A stretch of DNA of 37,662 nt, taken from positions 1 through 37,662 of the IMG/VR virus record IMGVR_UViG_3300009095_000035; one strand, given 5' to 3'. Below are positions 1,054-37,662 of this stretch, one piece after another (the stretch's first letter is position 1; each line of letters opens with the position of its first letter). Below the pieces are notes generated by a model, which saw only the letters and a program-made list of their open reading frames with translations, searched no databases and had not been told where the DNA came from. Source of the DNA: a virus. Position numbers and translations under genes: made by a program.

Positions 1054-1770
1054 ATGAACATCACTGATCGAATGACGAAACTTGTACTGGCACGGAAGCC
1101 TGAAACCGGCGTGCGTGGCGTAAAGCGGCTGATATCCACTACCTGTGGTGTCAGTTACGAGGCTGTACGCCAGTGGTTCGCCGGGGACACCGGTAATATC
1201 AAGAATGACAACCTGCTGGCGCTGGCCCGTGGACTGGATACGACAGTCGATTGGCTGTTGGATGGTGCCGGCGAACCACCGAGGCGGCGTGCCATGGATA
1301 ACGTAGTGATAGGCGACTTCTCCCGACAGCAGCGGGACGACGAAATTGATATCCCGCAATATGACGTAGTTGGATCAATGGGGCCCGGCCAGGTTCTTCC
1401 AAAGGAATACATCGAGACCGTCCGCAACATCACCGTTCGCACCGAATACCTGCGGGAACAGGGCATTACCTACACCCACGGCGACAACCTGTCGGTGATC
1501 ACTGGGTTTGGCGAAAGCATGGGTGCCACCTTTTCCAGTGGTGACCCGCTGATCGTTGACCAGGGCATCAATGAAGTGGTGGTGGACGGGGTTTACGTCT
1601 TTACACTTGATGGAATGCTGTACATCAAGCGTCTGCAGCGCCTGCCCAAAATGCTGCGCATGATCTCGGATAATGAGACCTTTCCGCCCTACGACATCAA
1701 GGGTGCTGAGCTGGAAGGCATGATTATTCACGCCCGCGTGTTGCTGGCCTGGAACGCAAGGAAGCTTTGA
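1054..1770 (+). CDS. cI: CI-like repressor: N-terminal HTH plus C-terminal S24 (LexA-type) autopeptidase
   Basis: 238 aa. Candidate Ala-Gly cleavage site in LLDGAGEPP. Ser motif GFGESMGATFSSGDPLIVD and Lys motif MLYIKRL. Divergent from cro. Confidence 0.9.
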   Translation: MNITDRMTKLVLARKPETGVRGVKRLISTTCGVSYEAVRQWFAGDTGNIKNDNLLALARGLDTTVDWLLDGAGEPPRRRAMDNVVIGDFSRQQRDDEIDIPQYDVVGSMGPGQVLPKEYIETVRNITVRTEYLREQGITYTHGDNLSVITGFGESMGATFSSGDPLIVDQGINEVVVDGVYVFTLDGMLYIKRLQRLPKMLRMISDNETFPPYDIKGAELEGMIIHARVLLAWNARKL

Positions 1771-7743: not shown

Positions 7744-7768
7744 AGGCGCCTAAGGGCGCCTTTCTCTT
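7744..7768 (+). terminator. Intrinsic terminator inside the leftward early operon
   Basis: AGGCGCC-TAAG-GGCGCCT followed by TTCTCTT, 21 nt after the stop at 7723. Confidence 0.6.
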
Positions 7769-16394: not shown

Positions 16395-18020
16395 CTAGTA
16401 TTCAACCTGCACGTCGTGCACGCCCGCATCTGGGCGCCAATCGTCACGCCGAGTCTCTGTCGGTTTCCCGACTATTCGGCCGATGCGAACAGGGGTAGAG
16501 CTGATTGCGCCGGCGCCGGAGTCGATGTAGTCATCGTCCTGATTGGTGAGCGCAGGGTTGAAGTCGCGCATCTGGTCCCAGATGGTGTGCAGCACGTCGA
16601 CGTGAGCCCACAGAAACCGCGCAGACAGGGGGGACTCGAAGGCGTCAAGAATGCGTTTCTGCTTGTTGGTGCTGGAGTGTTCTTCCCCTACCCCGCACCC
16701 TGTGCCCTTCAGCGCCTGCTTGAGGATTGAGGGAGCGAACCCGCCCGGCCCGTTGGTCTCAATGATCACGCGGGGGATCTGGAACTTGACCACCAGCTCA
16801 CGGATTTGATGCACCTGGCCACCGGTGATCCGATCCCGTTCATCGAACTCAGCAATTTCTCCCTCAAGGCCTGCCGCGACGTGCCAGTAGAGTTGTCCAC
16901 GCGCGTCAGTCAGCAGCAGCGAAAAGGCAGAGGCGTCCGATTTGATCTTGCCCAGCGAGCAGTCCCAGTAAGCGACGGCGCCGACGATCTGCGTGGCGCC
17001 CAAGAACATAGCGGCTGCGCCGTTGGCATAGCGCATGGTGGGTTGAACGTTATAGGGGATGATGCGCGCAGGGTCCAAACGAACCTCCGTGACGGGCTTT
17101 GAGTGGAGCTGGTACTGCGAATCCCATTCGTTGATGGTTTTGGTTTCTTTGCGGCGCTGGGCCAGCTCTTCCATGTTGAAGCGTTCAGGCCAGGCGCTGC
17201 CGGCGTAGCAGTCCACAAGCGTTCCAGGAGGGGCGAAGAACGCAATGCCGGTCTTTGTCAGCTGGTAGTCAGTTCCCAGCACCAGCACCCGCGCATGCTT
17301 GCCGATACCGGAAAACACCACGTCCGGCACGAAAGGCAGATCGTAAGCATTGAGCTTTGCCTCGGTAATCCGGTGTTCCTGGGCAAACATGCGGATGGTC
17401 AGGCAGTCGGCGCCAAGTGATTCAATCTCGTCGTAGAGGCTGTCATGGGTGTGCGGGGTACCAATGAACAGGCGGTATGCTCCGGGCACCATGATGTGGA
17501 TCTGCTCCCCCAGGCGGTAGCGCATCTTCTCCCGCGCTTCCGGGGTAGCGATGTTGCCGGGCACCTCAACATCATCGTTCTGGCATTCGTCCGCGCGCGC
17601 AGAGGTGACGTTGGAGAGGATGCCCCGCGCGTACATGCTGGCGTTCCGGCTGTCCACGGCGCCATATACCCACCACGATTCGGTACCGGACTGCGCTGTG
17701 GCCAGCAGATGCCGGGTAAGCGGGTGGTTGCGGATAACGTTCTGCGTGTCGCGACTGGTCTTGTACGCCGTTGGGTTAGATTCCGACTGGTGCAGGATTC
17801 GATAGGTGGGGTCTTTGTAGTAGCGCCAGGCGTTGTACACGGCCAGCAAAGTCGACTTACCAAACCCTCGAAAACAGCGCAGCACCGCGAGACGATCGCG
17901 GTGCTCCAGCCAATAAAGCGCACGGACGTGAATGTCCGGCACCTCCCACCGCATGCGCTTCGCCCAAATCAGGAAAAAGACCAGCAGCGATACTTTCGGT
18001 GACTCTTGGTCAGTGGACAT
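16395..18020 (-). CDS. terL: Terminase large subunit
   Basis: 541 aa with Walker A CFRGFGKST. T7 gp19-like position after TerS, with an 11-nt overlap with the TerS gene. Confidence 0.85.
   Translation of the reverse strand: MSTDQESPKVSLLVFFLIWAKRMRWEVPDIHVRALYWLEHRDRLAVLRCFRGFGKSTLLAVYNAWRYYKDPTYRILHQSESNPTAYKTSRDTQNVIRNHPLTRHLLATAQSGTESWWVYGAVDSRNASMYARGILSNVTSARADECQNDDVEVPGNIATPEAREKMRYRLGEQIHIMVPGAYRLFIGTPHTHDSLYDEIESLGADCLTIRMFAQEHRITEAKLNAYDLPFVPDVVFSGIGKHARVLVLGTDYQLTKTGIAFFAPPGTLVDCYAGSAWPERFNMEELAQRRKETKTINEWDSQYQLHSKPVTEVRLDPARIIPYNVQPTMRYANGAAAMFLGATQIVGAVAYWDCSLGKIKSDASAFSLLLTDARGQLYWHVAAGLEGEIAEFDERDRITGGQVHQIRELVVKFQIPRVIIETNGPGGFAPSILKQALKGTGCGVGEEHSSTNKQKRILDAFESPLSARFLWAHVDVLHTIWDQMRDFNPALTNQDDDYIDSGAGAISSTPVRIGRIVGKPTETRRDDWRPDAGVHDVQVEY
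16458..16477 (-). promoter_or_regulatory. Late element copy 5 (inside the 3' end of terL, about 90 nt upstream of the tailspike start)
   Basis: Plus strand TGTCGGTTTCCCGACTATTC. Sense strand GAATAGTCGG-GAAA-CCGACA. Confidence 0.6.
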
Positions 18021-18348: not shown

Positions 18349-20888
18349 CACTTCACCCCCACGGCAGCGCCAAGATTTGGGGCGCGATCTGGCGTTGTGT
18401 CGCCCGGCTCCCACCAGTACGACTGTTTAAATTCCTTGCGGGCGCGTTGCTTCATGCGGCGCAGGTAGCCCGGTGAGAAGTAATCCTGCAGTTGGTTGAA
18501 GATCAGGTGATCGGTGGCGGCCTTGGTGTACCAGAGGTTCGCGCCGGGTAAATGGCTCTTGGCCAGGCGCACCAGCTTGCCGCCGGTTTGGTTGACCTCG
18601 CCGTCTGCGGCGTTGTCTTTCAATTTGAAGATCGATTCCACGTCGCCAGCGATGGGGCCACCCAGGGCCGCAAGCGGAGAGCTGCCGCCCTGCGATGTGT
18701 CGGAGAACAGGAAGTCGCCGTAGAGGCCCATGGCGCCACCCTTGAGGAAGGAGGCCAGCCCGAAGCGCAAGCCGGGAACGCCCCATTTCTTATCATCGGT
18801 GATGTCCTTCGGATCGCGCCCGGATGCAATCTCGCCAAGCTGGATTGCCATGCCCCCCAGCACGGTGGTGGACGCAACCAAGGCAGCCAGATAGCCAGCC
18901 TTGCCCCAGCCTTCCTGGGCCATGCCGCGCGCGCCGTGGCGCATGATCATGCCAATGGAGAAGCTTTTGAACTGCCAGAACGAGCGCACAAGCTCACCCT
19001 TGACGGTGCCGCGCTCAACGCCGCCATGCATCATTGCCTTCTCGCGGGAACCCGGTTCAATGATCGCCATGTTGGTCTCATCCAGCACGGTGCCCAGCAG
19101 CTTGGTGGCGGCCTGATCCTTGAGGCGCTGCGGGGTTGTCTTGAGTTGCTGAGCGAGTTGCACCAGGTCAGCGTTGGGGATCCGGTAGATGCTGTTCGCG
19201 GTCAACACGGTGTCGCCCACGCCGCGCCAGTCTTCCGGCTGGGCCATGCGCCAAACAGACCAGTCCGTCTCGGTTACGCCCTGCCCCATCAAACGCTTGC
19301 TGTCGGCCGGGTCCATGGCTGACAGGGAGTCATGCCGACGGGACATATCGCCGATGGTGTCCAGCATGGTGGCGCCGAACGCGCGCTGGGAACCTGCGGT
19401 CAAGGCGTTGAGGCCGGACGCCTGCATGACCTTGCTGGCAGCGGTCTGGGAGAACTTGGCGATACGGCCCGCGATTTGCTCATTCGTTCCCAAGCCATCG
19501 GCACCAAAGCGGTTCAGGCTGCCAATCAGTTGGTTCAGGCCCAGGCCCGCGCGCTGCGCCAAACGTCGATCAGCAGCGCTGGCTGGGTTAAGCATGCGTA
19601 TCTCGTTGGCAAACACCTTCATCACCGGCATACCGTTCATGGACGCGGTAAGGCCCAGCGTTCCCTGGTCGGTGACCGAAGTCAGGACGGCGGACCCCAG
19701 GCGGCTGGCAACGTTGAGCGCGCGGTACGTGTCGAAGCCGTTGGCCAGGGCGGCAGACACCGGCGGCTCACGCGTGCCGGCGACTTCCTCAAACAGATGC
19801 TCAACCTTGCGGCGCTGTTTGGCGGTCTTGACGGAATCGGTCGGCCGGGCCGTGTCGGTTGCCTTCTGCCCTGCATCCAGGAAGTAACGCATTTGGTTGC
19901 TGGGGTTGGGGCCCAGCGTTTCCACCAGAGCAATATCCCGCGATGCCCGGTCAATATGGCCGATCAGCAGTTCCAGCAAGTTGCGGTCGCCGTACGACTT
20001 CTGTGCCGCGATAAAACTTTCGGCGTCCTTGTAGTGGATCTGGCGTGACTCGCTCCCACGATTCGCACGCATGCCGTTGCCTGCGGCCTGGCCTGGCTCC
20101 AGCTTGTTGGTGCCACCGGTGGCCAACGTCGTCCAGGCATGCCCGAGAAAGTCGGTGAGCTCGGCGTCATTCATCGGCGTACCGTCTTCCTTGAGGTACT
20201 TGCTACGGTTCGCCCACTGCATATGGTCGGCCACCCACTTGGCCTGATCCCTGGCAACCTTCACTTGCGAGTGGTCGCGCGGCATAGACCAGTCATCCAG
20301 GAAGCCCACGTCGCCGCCGGCGCGGTTGAATCGCTGGCGCAGTTGCTCAGCAGTGTCCTTGAACTGTTTGGCGGCGGTCTTGGCGACCGCGTTGCCGGAG
20401 TCCTCTCCATGCAGCTCGCGCACCAGGGCCAAGTTGCCGGCCTCATCTTGAAACAGGCCCAGGAACTTGCCTTTGGTTTGGTCGATCACGTCAAGCATGC
20501 GGCTGACGGAGTCGTCGCGGATCGCGCGTGTAGCCGATTCAATGGACTGGATGCCGCTCTTGCCGTCGCTGGAGAACGCCAACAGTCGGTCGAGCCCCTC
20601 AAGTGGGCGATCCGGAAAGCGCTGCATGTAGCTGTCGATGCGGTCATGGGCAAGGATGGTCAGCGCCACGCGCTTTTTCTTGAGGTCAGCTTCGGCCACC
20701 AGATCCTTGGCGGACTTGGCAGCGGCTTCGTTCAGTCGGTCGGCGGCGGTCTTGGATTGCCAGGTGTTATCGGTCTGCGCCAGTTGCTTCATGTTGCGGC
20801 GCACGCGGTTCTCGATGCCCTGGATTTCCTGCTGGTTGAGGGAACGGCCGATGGCCTGGGTGACGGCTTGGATGCATTCGGGGCGCAT
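18348..20888 (-). CDS. Internal virion / DNA-ejection protein (gp16-like position, 846 aa)
   Basis: Large ORF in the ejectosome block. The C-terminal part has Gly-rich hydrophobic helices (GYLAALVASTTVLGGMAIQLGEI). Confidence 0.65.
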   Translation of the reverse strand: MRPECIQAVTQAIGRSLNQQEIQGIENRVRRNMKQLAQTDNTWQSKTAADRLNEAAAKSAKDLVAEADLKKKRVALTILAHDRIDSYMQRFPDRPLEGLDRLLAFSSDGKSGIQSIESATRAIRDDSVSRMLDVIDQTKGKFLGLFQDEAGNLALVRELHGEDSGNAVAKTAAKQFKDTAEQLRQRFNRAGGDVGFLDDWSMPRDHSQVKVARDQAKWVADHMQWANRSKYLKEDGTPMNDAELTDFLGHAWTTLATGGTNKLEPGQAAGNGMRANRGSESRQIHYKDAESFIAAQKSYGDRNLLELLIGHIDRASRDIALVETLGPNPSNQMRYFLDAGQKATDTARPTDSVKTAKQRRKVEHLFEEVAGTREPPVSAALANGFDTYRALNVASRLGSAVLTSVTDQGTLGLTASMNGMPVMKVFANEIRMLNPASAADRRLAQRAGLGLNQLIGSLNRFGADGLGTNEQIAGRIAKFSQTAASKVMQASGLNALTAGSQRAFGATMLDTIGDMSRRHDSLSAMDPADSKRLMGQGVTETDWSVWRMAQPEDWRGVGDTVLTANSIYRIPNADLVQLAQQLKTTPQRLKDQAATKLLGTVLDETNMAIIEPGSREKAMMHGGVERGTVKGELVRSFWQFKSFSIGMIMRHGARGMAQEGWGKAGYLAALVASTTVLGGMAIQLGEIASGRDPKDITDDKKWGVPGLRFGLASFLKGGAMGLYGDFLFSDTSQGGSSPLAALGGPIAGDVESIFKLKDNAADGEVNQTGGKLVRLAKSHLPGANLWYTKAATDHLIFNQLQDYFSPGYLRRMKQRARKEFKQSYWWEPGDTTPDRAPNLGAAVGVK

Positions 20889-20889
20889 G

Positions 20890-20919
20890 GGCTTGCTCCT
20901 GATTGGATGGGAGCAAGCC
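20890..20919 (-). promoter_or_regulatory. 10-bp hairpin sequestering the Shine-Dalgarno sequence of the 846-aa gene
   Basis: Sense strand GGCTTGCTCC-CATCCAATCA-GGAGCAAGCC-CATG. The GGAG of the ribosome-binding site forms the 3' arm of the stem. Confidence 0.55.
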
Positions 20920-20933
20920 TATGGTTCAGCGGT

Positions 20934-29208: not shown

Positions 29209-29249
29209 GATTGTTGCTCCTGATAAGATGGGAGAAGGCCAAAAGCCGC

Positions 29250-30282: not shown

Positions 30283-30302
30283 TGTCGGTTTCCCGACTAT
30301 TT
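30283..30302 (-). promoter_or_regulatory. Late element copy 3 (between the scaffold and capsid genes)
   Basis: Plus strand TGTCGGTTTCCCGACTATTT. Sense strand AAATAGTCGG-GAAA-CCGACA. Confidence 0.6.
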
Positions 30303-33719: not shown

Positions 33720-34163
33720 GCGAGGGAGGCAGGTGGCGTTGACCCAATCAATCAGGCTGTTCAAGGCGATGATTGCTTCGTCTCCGTCATTGGCGATGGC
33801 GACAATTCGTTGACCAGCCGCTGGGTCAAGTTCTGCGCGCGCTTCTGCATCATCCACGCGGCCGGGGCTTGCGCTGGCTCGCACGACGGGGCACTTGGCT
33901 GGGACTGACAGCCGCTGAGTGCCAGTGCCAACACGAGCAAGAAGGGCTTTGTTCTGGGCTTGAGCATCGGTGAGTACCTTGGTGTTGTCGGTGTCGAGCT
34001 GGGTCAGCAGCTTCTGGGTGGTCTTGCGTGATGCGTTGGCAGCCTCCAGCACGCCTACACGCTCCGTTGCGGTGTCCAGGCCTGTGCTGATGTGGTCAAG
34101 ACGCCAGAGCGACAGCAGCAGGCCAATGGCGAGCGCAGCGCAGATGCCGAGAAGGATCTTCAC
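33714..34163 (-). CDS. Rz-like i-spanin
   Basis: GTG at 34163 overlaps the endolysin stop (GTGA) and is preceded by GAGG. N-terminal TM helix KILLGICAALAIGLLLSLW followed by a coiled coil. The track start at 34178 is also possible. Confidence 0.75.
   Translation of the reverse strand: MKILLGICAALAIGLLLSLWRLDHISTGLDTATERVGVLEAANASRKTTQKLLTQLDTDNTKVLTDAQAQNKALLARVGTGTQRLSVPAKCPVVRASASPGRVDDAEARAELDPAAGQRIVAIANDGDEAIIALNSLIDWVNATCLPRK
33761..33967 (-). CDS. Rz1-like o-spanin lipoprotein, embedded in Rz in another frame
   Basis: MLKPRTKPFLLVLALALSGC carries a lipobox (LSGC). The mature part is Pro-rich. The ORF lies entirely inside the Rz-like gene. Confidence 0.7.
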   Translation of the reverse strand: MLKPRTKPFLLVLALALSGCQSQPSAPSCEPAQAPAAWMMQKRAQNLTQRLVNELSPSPMTETKQSSP

Positions 34164-34630: not shown

Positions 34631-34905
34631 GATCTGGCACGCTCACGCAGCGCTTCAATGCGTGCGGCGCTCTCGACTGACTCGCGATGATCCTTGCGCC
34701 ACTGGAAATACACGTTGATCACCAGGCCCAAGACTGCGACCGCTACACCGGTGATCCCTATCCAGTTGACCTGGGACAGCCAACCCACCAAACCAACAGC
34801 GCCGCCCGTGAGCATTCCTTTGCTCGCGACTGATGCGCCGACTACCTCAACGATGCTCTCCGGCGCAGGGTTGGCCATGCTGTTACTCCTGACTGGATGC
34901 TTCAT
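34627..34905 (-). CDS. Holin (two TM helices, pinholin-like)
   Basis: 92 aa with possible dual starts (M1 and M10). TM helices GMLTGGAVGLVGWLSQV and WIGITGVAVAVLGLVINVYF, with a charged C-terminus. Its stop overlaps the endolysin GTG. Confidence 0.7.
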   Translation of the reverse strand: MKHPVRSNSMANPAPESIVEVVGASVASKGMLTGGAVGLVGWLSQVNWIGITGVAVAVLGLVINVYFQWRKDHRESVESAARIEALRERARS

Positions 34906-34920
34906 GTCGCCTCCAGGGTC

Positions 34921-34951
34921 AAAAAAAAGCCCAGCGCGAGTTGGCTGGGCT
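34921..34951 (-). terminator. Strong intrinsic terminator 16 nt upstream of the holin start (tR'-like)
   Basis: Sense strand AGCCCAGC-CAACTCGC-GCTGGGCT followed by a T run (eight A on the plus strand at 34921-34928). It lies between late element copy 1 and the holin ribosome-binding site. Confidence 0.8.
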
Positions 34952-34981
34952 GCGATGACCGTAAGAGTCGTCGGGGTCAGG

Positions 34982-35001
34982 TGTCGGAATCCCGACTATT
35001 T
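34982..35001 (-). promoter_or_regulatory. Late element copy 1 (abuts the stop of the HTH gene, upstream of the lysis cassette)
   Basis: Plus strand TGTCGGAATCCCGACTATTT. Sense strand AAATAGTCGG-GATT-CCGACA. Confidence 0.6.
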
Positions 35002-35261
35002 CAAACCTTGGAGTGATAAGCCCACCAGTCACCGACGGCGACCATGGGCAGCTTTGAACGATCCCAGCCAGTGGTCTGGGACCAAAACAGCACAAGGCGC
35101 TCCCCCTCGGTGTAGCGAGGTTCGGCGCCCTGCTTCCAACCCAGCAACGTGGTACGCGCCACCCCAATCGCGTCAGCAACCGACTGCGGGGAGTAGCCGG
35201 CACGCGAAAGCCCGGTGATCACCGTGAACCAATCAACCCGCTGTTCGACCAGGGCGAGCAT
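35001..35261 (-). CDS. Small HTH protein at the lambda Q position (candidate late regulator)
   Basis: 86 aa from the ATG at 35261. The HTH is SPQSVADAIGVARTTLLGWKQG. It is the last gene before the late region. Confidence 0.6.
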   Translation of the reverse strand: MLALVEQRVDWFTVITGLSRAGYSPQSVADAIGVARTTLLGWKQGAEPRYTEGERLVLFWSQTTGWDRSKLPMVAVGDWWAYHSKV

Positions 35262-35263
35262 GG

Positions 35264-35452
35264 CTAGGCGCTCGCTGCACGCGACACAGCATCGGCAAGG
35301 GTGCTGCGAGGAAAACACGACAACTTCCCCCGGCAACGGCTGTCGCCACACGCACAAAATCGGATGTCAAACCAGCTATCCCGACCATCGGGCGGAGTGA
35401 GTAACTCCCAGAAGTTGTACATCCTGGCGGCCAATTCGCTGTATCCGCTCAT
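35264..35452 (-). CDS. Possible 62-aa Cys-rich protein
   Basis: The ATG at 35452 is ATGA-coupled to the upstream gene. It fills an otherwise empty gap. Translation MSGYSELAARMYNFWELLTPPDGRDSWFDIRFCACGDSRC.... Confidence 0.45.
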   Translation of the reverse strand: MSGYSELAARMYNFWELLTPPDGRDSWFDIRFCACGDSRCRGKLSCFPRSTLADAVSRAASA

Positions 35453-35721
35453 GCAGCACCCCCAAACGCGCACGCGCGCGAGGCAGAGTGAGTTGGCGCG
35501 CCCACCCCACACCCCTTCCGTATCTGGTTATCCATTTCGGATATAACCGCCGCAAACGCTATAACCGGATAATTGGCCTCATCAAATTGGAACGGATGAA
35601 CCGCCCTGCGCAGCCCCAACAGGCACTCAGGCTCGTCAGGCCCTGACAGATCCACATCGACGCCGATCATCACCCAGCCATCGTTCAGCTCGCGGCATGC
35701 CCACTTGAGCAATGGTTTCAT
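35449..35721 (-). CDS. Hypothetical protein (90 aa)
   Basis: ATGA-coupled to rusA. Confidence 0.55.
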   Translation of the reverse strand: MKPLLKWACRELNDGWVMIGVDVDLSGPDEPECLLGLRRAVHPFQFDEANYPVIAFAAVISEMDNQIRKGCGVGAPTHSASRACAFGGAA

Positions 35722-37250: not shown

Positions 37251-37662
37251 AGAATCGGCTCCTTTGCCCATTCGGTGCTTTTCATGTCAAGCGGTTGATT
37301 GCCAGTGCGTTGCGGTGAGATCAGGCGATGGTTGGCGTCGTCCTGGGCTTTGAGAAACCAAGTACGCCAAGTGGCCGACCAGTCGAGTTTCGTTCCGCCG
37401 CTTCCGCGCCAGTAGTTCACGAACTTCTCGGTTTCGTTTGCCAGGTTCACGGCTGGGGTGCGTTCAACCGCCCACTTGCGCATGTCGCCGGTGAGGTTGA
37501 ATGGTTCGGGCAGGCGAGATTTGCGCTTGGGTTTCGGGTCAGTCGGCGGCTTCGGATCAGCGTCCGGCTTTTCGTTTTCAGCAGCAGGGGGATTAAGGGG
37601 GTTCTTATTCTGTTCTGTATCTGTTCTGTTCTGTTCTGGGGCGTTACTGGAACGTTTCTGTA
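37247..37662 (-). CDS. Replication initiator / replisome organiser, 3' part (the last 123 nt duplicate bases 1-123)
   Basis: Open frame from the window end to the TGA at 37249-37247. The C-terminal sequence is ...FNLTGDMRKWAVERTPAVNLANETEKFVNYWRGSGGTKLDWSATWRTWFLKAQ. It sits immediately upstream of the P-like gene. Confidence 0.8.
   Translation of the reverse strand, partial: QKRSSNAPEQNRTDTEQNKNPLNPPAAENEKPDADPKPPTDPKPKRKSRLPEPFNLTGDMRKWAVERTPAVNLANETEKFVNYWRGSGGTKLDWSATWRTWFLKAQDDANHRLISPQRTGNQPLDMKSTEWAKEPIL
37540..37662. repeat. Terminal direct repeat, right copy (circular closure overlap)
   Basis: Identical to 1-123. Confidence 0.95.

Follow-up and report, generated by a model that had tools for sequence, protein, structure and literature searches.

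The controller C proteins of restriction-modification (R-M) systems are dimeric helix-turn-helix (HTH) proteins of about 80 amino acids, which bind short palindromes beside or over the −35 box and activate transcription by contacting sigma70. Regarding the regulators of phage late genes, Mu C serves several late promoters that have a −10 hexamer and no −35, through a dyad-symmetric site that overlaps the −35 region (PMC2582627), and the sites of lambda Q and of Pseudomonas aeruginosa AlpA lie between the −35 and −10 boxes of a complete promoter (PMC7969949). AlpA is built of eight helices and combines a ring at the N-terminus with an HTH at the C-terminus, at residues ~128–142 (PMC9371919); its binding element, GGGACG, is located between −35 and −10 (PMC7969949, PMC9371919), and it needs a CACGAT pause element at −1 to +5 (PMC9371919). 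The DNA considered here is a stretch of 37,662 nucleotides (hereafter the window), corresponding to positions 1 to 37,662 of the IMG/VR virus record IMGVR_UViG_3300009095_000035, in which, past the gene of an 86-amino-acid HTH protein, come copy 1 of a late promoter element present five times, a strong intrinsic terminator and the lysis genes. A preliminary description had likened this layout to lambda Q/pR'/tR'; the likeness holds for the gene order, and a Q-type mechanism is not supported, as the locus departs from it in the fold of the protein, the position of its presumed site, the absence of a conserved pause element and the number of promoters. The reading favoured here, to which a probability of roughly 0.55 is assigned, is that the HTH protein is a late activator working on five sigma70-type promoters devoid of a −35 box, combined with leaky terminators that serve as insulators or attenuators and are passed by passive read-through.

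The element was studied in a comparison set made of 80 viral contigs encoding homologues of the HTH protein, plus Yersinia phage YeP5, and 119 unique copies were collected from the related contigs. Their consensus consists of AAATA, the palindrome GTCGGGAWNCCGAC, 13 unconserved bases and the hexamer gAynCT. In this hexamer an A fills position 2 in 119/119 copies and a T position 6 in 118/119, and these two positions are the most important ones in the sigma70 −10 hexamer. Among the 119 copies there is no conservation upstream of AAATA, and no TTGACA-like hexamer is present, the −35 place being occupied by the palindrome, which extends from −39 to −26. The arms of the palindrome differ among copies by 22 one-sided changes and by 0 compensatory double changes; because this variation is never compensated, the palindrome is considered a protein site and not an RNA stem. 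The element is thus predicted to be an activator-dependent late promoter, and the suggestion of the preliminary description that it could be a promoter is supported by the invariant −10-like hexamer and its fixed 13-bp spacing from the palindrome. As for the start site, a recurrent C-A-T-C found 7–8 bases past the hexamer, together with the spacing, places the predicted start of the first promoter at ~34956.

Three other explanations of the element were considered. Promoters for a phage RNA polymerase, prompted by five conserved 20-mers in a T7-like genome, were rejected on account of the sigma70 −10 signature and of the absence of a polymerase gene (see below); an RNA hairpin or processing site at the palindrome was rejected because the arms are uncompensated and Rfam returned no match; and the possibility that AATAGT, inside the element, is the true −10, with gAynCT as a sigma-dependent pause, is less likely, since no conserved −35 or TG extension is found upstream of it.

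The window holds exactly five copies of the element, all on the minus (late-gene) strand; in a weight-matrix scan they score 22–54 bits, against −5.7 for the best of 20 shuffles. Each copy stands 30–90 nucleotides (nt) ahead of a gene start, and the spacing of the hexamer is the same in all. The first promoter, P1 (35001–34964), is made of AAATA at 35001–34997, the palindrome GTCGGGATTCCGAC at 34996–34983, the 13-bp spacer and the −10-like hexamer GACTCT at 34969–34964, with a score of 52.1. P2 (33719–33682; palindrome 33714–33701, −10 GATTCT 33687–33682, score 53.7) precedes a 147-amino-acid gene and the portal and scaffold genes, and no terminator follows it. P3 (30302–30265; palindrome 30297–30284, −10 AAACAT 30270–30265, score 53.6) precedes the major capsid gene and is conserved in nearly all the related loci. 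The two lower-scoring copies are P4 (20953–20916; palindrome 20948–20935, −10 TAGGCT 20921–20916, score 21.9), ahead of the gene of an 846-amino-acid virion protein, and P5 (16477–16440; palindrome 16472–16459, −10 GACGAT 16445–16440, score 33.0), ahead of the tail-fibre gene. In a genome-wide pattern scan, elements in multiple copies were found only in prophages of this type; single matches outside proteobacterial prophages were about as many as estimated for chance, and none of those genomes encodes the HTH protein or a related virion protein. The same promoter design was found in YeP5, the only one examined of the Yersinia phages YeP4–6, ahead of its structural, capsid and lysis genes.

Some features of single copies deserve mention. 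The centre of the palindrome is ATT/ATC at the lysis promoters (GTCGGGATTCCGAC, GTCAGGATTCCGAC), in the Pseudomonas phages as well as in YeP5 (at about 1945 of locus L081), and AAA/AAC at the capsid and structural promoters (e.g., 30284–30297); this difference may tune affinity or timing. The leader that follows P3 (30234–30264, minus strand; CGCAGGCATCCCAGCAATGGGCCGGCCTGCG) is almost invariant in most of the loci L001–L065, and nested stems with a GCAA loop are possible in it. The start called for the capsid open reading frame (ORF), 30248, falls inside this leader, and it may be miscalled, because the PHROG match of the protein begins at residue 45. At P4, a 10-bp hairpin (20886–20921, minus strand; arms 20919–20910 and 20899–20890; −20.2 kcal/mol, z = −5.7) would sequester the ribosome-binding site belonging to the 846-amino-acid gene; its 5' arm overlaps the P4 −10 and the predicted start, 20908, is in its loop, so that on the folding model the hairpin would form only in read-through RNA. 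A weaker copy of this hairpin sequence occurs at 29214–29240, before a 174-amino-acid gene. Finally, P5 is contained in the last 27 codons of the ORF of the terminase large subunit (16395–18020), 70–110 nt before the tail-fibre gene.

Regarding the protein proposed to act on the element, the 86-amino-acid XRE-type HTH protein is encoded by a minus-strand ORF at 35261–35001, with which the leftward early operon ends. Its stop codon, TGA at 35003–35001, is overlapped by the first copy of the element, which spans 35002–34978; both the end of the gene at 35001 and the placing of this copy at its stop had been reported correctly in the preliminary description. The protein matches phrog_16553 at 8e-19, a family labelled 'transcriptional repressor' in PHROG. 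Its matches to the HTH families of Pfam are weak (HTH_3 at 0.078, below its cut-off), and neither Pfam nor NCBIfam provided a family assignment; likewise, there was no match to a Q family in Pfam or NCBIfam, to Phage_AlpA (PF05930) in Pfam at E <= 0.1, or to Mor/C in Pfam or PHROG. The AlphaFold2 model has a predicted local distance difference test (pLDDT) score of 85, and its top Foldseek matches in PDB and BFVD are HipB, R-M controller C proteins, SinR, P22 c2 and HTH_XRE proteins, with probabilities of 0.9–1.0 and weak E-values; the PDB matches include no Q21 entry and no AlpA complex. According to this model, the fold is of the XRE/Cro-C1 type, with a helical HTH like that of lambda repressor, and is not that of Q, AlpA or Mor/C.

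Close homologues of the HTH protein number 80, in Pseudomonas prophages, and none of them has a name; the same is true of the 1081 representative clusters retrieved at E <= 1e-3 by a profile search. A tblastn search with the protein returned only the Yersinia phages YeP4–6, with a homologue that is 46% identical and annotated as hypothetical. Both the predicted recognition helix of the homologues and the DNA core of the element are almost without variation. The HTH gene goes together with the element and with a T7-like portal gene across 46–98% protein identity, in a range that spans Pseudomonas, Stenotrophomonas, Massilia and Yersinia phage YeP5; the portal is almost always within 0.5–3 kb downstream of the HTH gene, and in the relatives the first element is frequently overlapped by the HTH stop codon. 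This co-occurrence suggests that the HTH protein most likely works in the manner of Mu C, as an activator of late genes. The preliminary description, which had recognized no Q family in it and had suggested that it may be a different kind of late regulator, agrees with these results: the protein has no Q match and is the best candidate for a late regulator.

Two observations concern the protein and its neighbourhood. The C-terminal tail DWWAYHSK(A/V) (residues 78–86; 35001–35027, minus strand) hardly varies and is not part of the HTH core; it is a candidate for the surface that touches RNA polymerase or sigma. The adjacent Cys-rich ORF at 35264–35512 was evaluated as a zinc-finger partner or antiterminator and rejected, as it is not conserved in the relatives.

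The intrinsic terminator following P1 (34951–34921, minus strand) is made of an 8-bp stem, AGCCCAGC/GCTGGGCT, with 6 G-C pairs and an 8-nt loop at 34951–34928, followed by T8 to 34921; hairpin and T8 are 26–31 nt beyond copy 1 of the element. The folding energy of the hairpin is −15.4 kcal/mol (z = −3.45), and with strict criteria only three such terminators were found in the whole genome, against a mean of 0.07 in 100 shuffles. The hairpin, the T run and the holin ribosome-binding site with its ATG just beyond are all placed as the preliminary description had them, and any transcript for lysis must pass the terminator, as stated there; it is positioned between P1 and the holin gene. The default product foreseen, a short terminated RNA, is retained with a different length: counted from the predicted start, the hairpin occupies the P1 transcript from about +6 onwards, so that the terminated RNA would be ~35 nt long and not 60–70 nt.

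The distribution of this terminator in the comparison set is informative. It follows 33 of the 119 unique copies of the element, with the stem 13–19 nt past the hexamer, and in all 33 cases the copy is the first promoter past the early region. Among 59 unique loci, 33 have both the lysis cassette, located between the HTH gene and the portal, and the terminator; 24 have neither, and their HTH gene runs directly into a P2-type promoter and the structural genes. The exceptions are 2: in one the interval holds unidentified genes, and in the other a 5-bp stem was missed by the finder. The order regulator, promoter, terminator and holin-endolysin-Rz, which parallels Q-pR'-tR'-SRRz of lambda, is kept in 33 of the 34 loci that have the cassette at this place. 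This pattern is the one expected if the terminator shields the lysis genes from early transcription, in which case it should be confined to loci where early operon and cassette adjoin. An alignment of 26 P1 leaders gave 7 consensus pairs, of which 2 had compensatory double changes, and only 1 broken cell in 182; as compensatory changes maintain the stem, the hairpin is under selection. No conserved −10-like pause element (nAnnnT) was detected between start and hairpin in 36 P1 variants. A start of P1 inside the 5' arm of the terminator, which would have given a local escape, was rejected: the stem is at +6 to +13 and the whole hairpin is transcribed.

Downstream of this terminator, the lysis genes are on the minus strand. 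The first encodes a putative class II holin of 92 amino acids (34905–34627), an assignment that is weak, being based on a match to Pfam Phage_holin_2_4 at 1.8e-6 (28.2 bits, slightly below the cut-off of 30) and on a DNA match to an annotated holin; its ATG, at 34905, is 15 nt past the T run and is preceded by a GGAGG ribosome-binding site. Two in-frame ATGs, nine codons apart (34905 and 34878), have each a Shine-Dalgarno sequence, and may constitute a holin/antiholin dual start. The holin gene is followed by that of a lysozyme-type endolysin (34630–34160; Pfam Phage_lysozyme, 4e-40), whose matching phage genes are annotated as SAR-endolysin or endolysin, and by that of the Rz spanin (34178–33714; Pfam Phage_lysis, 8.5e-13), in which an ORF for an Rz1-like lipoprotein with an LSGC lipobox (33761–33967) is embedded.

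A second intrinsic terminator (28651–28622, minus strand; hairpin 28651–28631; −16.3 kcal/mol, z = −4.1) comes after the capsid and the 174-amino-acid genes, and a few bases further on is the ribosome-binding site for tail tubular protein A. Of 49 unique loci, 45 have kept this terminator, that of Yersinia phage YeP5 among them, and it occupies the place that Tphi has in T7. The weight-matrix scan found no element between this terminator and P4 at 20953; because of this, ~7.6 kb of tail and internal virion genes depend on read-through. The conservation of the second terminator, directly before tail genes that have no promoter of their own, shows that terminators needing partial read-through, as T7 Tphi does, belong to the design of late transcription in this lineage.

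On these bases, the HTH protein, last product of a leftward early operon controlled by CI, would be the late activator of the lineage. A dimer of it would occupy GTCGG-N4-CCGAC, the palindrome present at about −39 to −26 in place of the missing −35 box, with AAATA at −44 to −40 possibly working as a UP-like sequence and the −10 hexamer gAynCT exactly 13 bp past the palindrome; the activator would then recruit or position the host RNA polymerase, in the manner of Mu C, lambda CII and the R-M controller C proteins. P1 would fire at ~34956 and its transcript would run into the strong terminator at +6. This terminator would be mainly an insulator, keeping early-operon transcription from the holin and endolysin genes, and also an attenuator, passed by only a fraction of the P1 transcripts, so that the lysis genes would be expressed late and at a low level. 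The second terminator would have the role of T7 Tphi, combining a high capsid output with a lower tail output by means of partial read-through.

Several points weigh against this reading. The link between the HTH protein and the element comes from their co-occurrence and position. The dyad would be centred at about −32.5, which is unusual for an activator, that of Mu C being at −43.5 (PMC2582627). The terminator is downstream of the P1 start, tightly at +6 to +13, in every related locus that has the module; for insulation alone a terminator upstream of P1 would serve better, and the geometry found resembles that of promoter-loaded antitermination, as in lambda pR'-tR' and AlpA (PMC7969949). 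In addition, the hairpin and U8 look strong, and too little may leak through passively to supply ~1.2 kb of lysis genes that have no other promoter. Finally, the variants of the terminator look related by descent, so that the conserved order may reflect a single origin.

A possible, if unlikely, alternative is a switch akin to Q or AlpA, in which the HTH protein, by itself or together with a partner, joins the polymerase at the element and lets it resist both the P1 and the post-capsid terminators; without the HTH protein P1 would give only the ~35-nt RNA, and the protein could be activator and antiterminator at once. The lambdoid Q-pR'-tR' gene order, with RusA upstream, speaks for it, as do the terminator always being downstream of the P1 start at +6 to +13, the presence of two strong terminators directly ahead of essential genes without promoters, and the tail DWWAYHSKA of the HTH protein, nearly invariant and with no assigned role; precedents of promoter-loaded antiterminators in charge of lysis or particle genes exist in AlpA (PMC7969949, PMC9371919) and GafYZ (PMC11150451). 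However, the 86-amino-acid XRE fold has no ring-forming N-terminal segment, no Q21 or AlpA structure was among its matches, and Pfam gave neither Phage_AlpA nor a Q family; the site is over the −35 position of a promoter that has no −35 box, instead of between −35 and −10, and the initially transcribed region has no conserved nAnnnT pause, the hairpin beginning at +6. Moreover, four of the five promoters have no terminator, nor is one present in the relatives that have no lysis cassette at this place; a late polymerase blind to terminators would leave the Tphi-like terminator, kept in 45/49 loci, without a late function; and the neighbouring Cys-rich ORF, not being conserved, is not a partner. 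A specific form of this idea, somewhat more doubtful still, is that the 86-amino-acid XRE-fold protein belongs to a new and minimal kind of promoter-loaded regulator, which both creates the late promoters without −35 and renders the polymerase launched from them resistant to the terminators at +6 of P1 and, Tphi-like, before the tail genes. If true, an XRE protein of unrelated fold and about half the size would fill the role of Q or AlpA, and this could be how a lineage of T7-like podophages replaced its own RNA polymerase.

Next in order, and improbable, is an escape at the promoter that needs no dedicated factor: the terminator would stop the polymerases coming from the early operon, free of sigma and carrying NusA, and would be inefficient for those starting at P1, 6 nt upstream of it, which would reach the U-tract at about +35 with sigma70 and without NusA; the hairpin, being near the 5' end of the lysis mRNA, might also stabilise it. 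This proposal would explain why the terminator is held at +6 to +13 in all variants and why it is found only where the early operon abuts the lysis genes, and P4 likewise separates local from read-through RNA by the position of its start, by virtue of the −20 kcal/mol hairpin. It rests, however, on general knowledge of the exchange between sigma70 and NusA in early elongation, an effect that is not known for a terminator at +35; the full hairpin and U8 are contained in the P1 RNA, for which ordinary termination is expected, and the single-stranded segment of ~5 nt at the 5' end is longer than usual for protective 5' hairpins.

Lastly, a reading in which the element is something other than a promoter worked by this HTH protein, namely an RNA-level signal, the site of another factor (e.g., a host sigma) or a target repressed by the HTH protein, is very improbable: the palindrome might form a 5-bp stem closed by a GNRA-like loop, the PHROG family has a repressor label, 4/5 copies overlap or abut the upstream stop codon and AATAGT is itself −10-like, but the stem variation is never compensated, Rfam has no match, AATAGT has no conserved −35 or TG extension upstream, the invariant A and T at fixed spacing fit the sigma70 −10 hexamer, the presence of the same element in Pseudomonas and Yersinia phages argues for a phage-encoded reader, and it is hard to see why an early operon should end with a repressor of late promoters.

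As for the genome that hosts this system, bases 1–123 of the window are identical to 37540–37662, so that the window, with these 123 bases repeated at its two ends, is the complete genome of a temperate phage of ~37.5 kb, circularly closed or terminally redundant, and its G+C content is 59.6%. The phage is a temperate Pseudomonas podophage with a T7-like virion module and lambdoid early genes, and without a phage RNA polymerase; no gene for the latter was found by PHROG and Pfam scans of 40 ORFs, including every coding-strand ORF of at least 430 amino acids. A CI-like repressor gene (1054–1770, plus strand) is flanked by inverted operator-like repeats: a 26-nt inverted repeat with AAGCATGCTT palindromes occurs at 995–1020 and at 2155–2180, on the two sides of the repressor gene and of a 104-amino-acid gene, and the two repeats are likely the operators of two divergent early promoters. 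The rightward operon includes the genes of RecT, RecE, an HNH protein, an exonuclease and the integrase; at 7744–7761 (plus strand), 3' of a 333-amino-acid gene in this operon, is the sole strong terminator of the plus strand. The leftward, minus-strand unit begins with a sigma70-like promoter near 1030 and a cro-like gene starting at 963, crosses the ends of the window and continues with a lambda-P-like gene, RusA and two small ORFs, up to the 86-amino-acid HTH gene; past it, the same strand carries the holin, lysozyme and Rz/Rz1 genes and then the virion module in T7 order. PHROG matches identified the portal, scaffold, capsid, tail tube B, 846-amino-acid virion protein, terminase large subunit and tail protein, and the remaining genes of the module were assigned by position. 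Megablast against phage records gave no match to the window, and distant blastn matches were limited to the lysis genes, RusA and one hypothetical gene.

Regarding the relevance of these data, a late regulon is defined here from sequence alone, with a candidate regulator family (1081 clusters) and a 38-bp promoter model that can be used to annotate late promoters in prophages of this type. The lineage is widespread, consisting of temperate podophages in Pseudomonas, Stenotrophomonas, Massilia and Yersinia that have virion genes of the T7 type and use the host RNA polymerase; Pseudomonas phage vB_PaeM-G11 was considered as a phage of this kind and rejected, because it carries its own RNA polymerase. 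The activator and its promoter could provide a compact pair for synthetic biology in Pseudomonas, and a terminator ~6 nt past a late start offers a test case for promoter-proximal terminators, antitermination by XRE proteins and the timing of lysis. No description of the motif, of the HTH family or of late regulation in this type of phage was found in the literature.

Among the known systems, Mu C has in common with the HTH protein, in the role proposed for it, that it is a small dimeric HTH activator made just before the late genes, with its gene beside the lysis promoter, and that it serves, with the host sigma70 RNA polymerase, several late promoters having a −10 and no −35, from a dyad-symmetric site overlapping the −35 region (PMC2582627). 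The differences regard the fold, Mor/C against XRE, with no relation in sequence or structure; the centre of the dyad, −43.5 in Mu (PMC2582627) and about −32.5 here; the size, 140 against 86 amino acids; and the strong terminator at +6 of the first late promoter, which is a trait of the present locus.

Lambda Q, as well as its counterparts in phages 21 and 82, shares the order of rusA and nin-like genes, regulator, promoter, terminator, holin, endolysin and Rz/Rz1, and the need for late and lysis transcripts to pass a terminator just beyond the promoter. Other traits of these systems were not seen here: Q proteins exceed the present one in size and join an N-terminal part that forms a ring to a C-terminal HTH; the element they bind is between −35 and −10 of a constitutive promoter and a −10-like pause is needed; and one promoter serves the whole late operon. 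The AlpA/alpB/tB system of P. aeruginosa is similar in its succession of regulator gene, promoter with a binding element, intrinsic terminator and lysis genes (PMC7969949, PMC9371919), and AlpA, like the HTH protein, has no sequence similarity to Q; it differs from the present system, which has an XRE fold, a palindrome at the −35 position and no pause element of the AlpA kind.

The R-M controller C proteins, of which C.AhdI, C.Esp1396I and C.BclI are examples, are among the closest structural matches of the HTH protein; however, they autoregulate R-M operons and not a phage late regulon with several promoters, and their identity to the HTH protein is only 10–17%, with weak Foldseek E-values (0.07–0.3). 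With T7, the window shares the order of the virion genes, a repeated promoter ahead of the capsid and tail genes, as in the class III promoters, and a terminator past the capsid gene that has to be read through in part, as Tphi; in contrast to T7, it has no phage RNA polymerase, and it employs a sigma70-type −10 with an activator site and intrinsic terminators of the bacterial type. The GafY/GafZ pair of the Caulobacter gene transfer agent (GTA) is comparable for its two-tier control of a phage-like structural cluster, which joins the activation of promoters, through a small protein that binds DNA, to the bypass of internal terminators (PMC11150451), but it requires two proteins, IHF and Nus factors, and the GafZ element is between −10 and −35 (PMC11150451); no homology to it was detected, and the HTH gene has no conserved partner gene beside it. 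In conclusion, late activators working on late promoters without a −35 are known, and the protein family, the promoter and the promoter-proximal terminator seen here vary that scheme in a new way.

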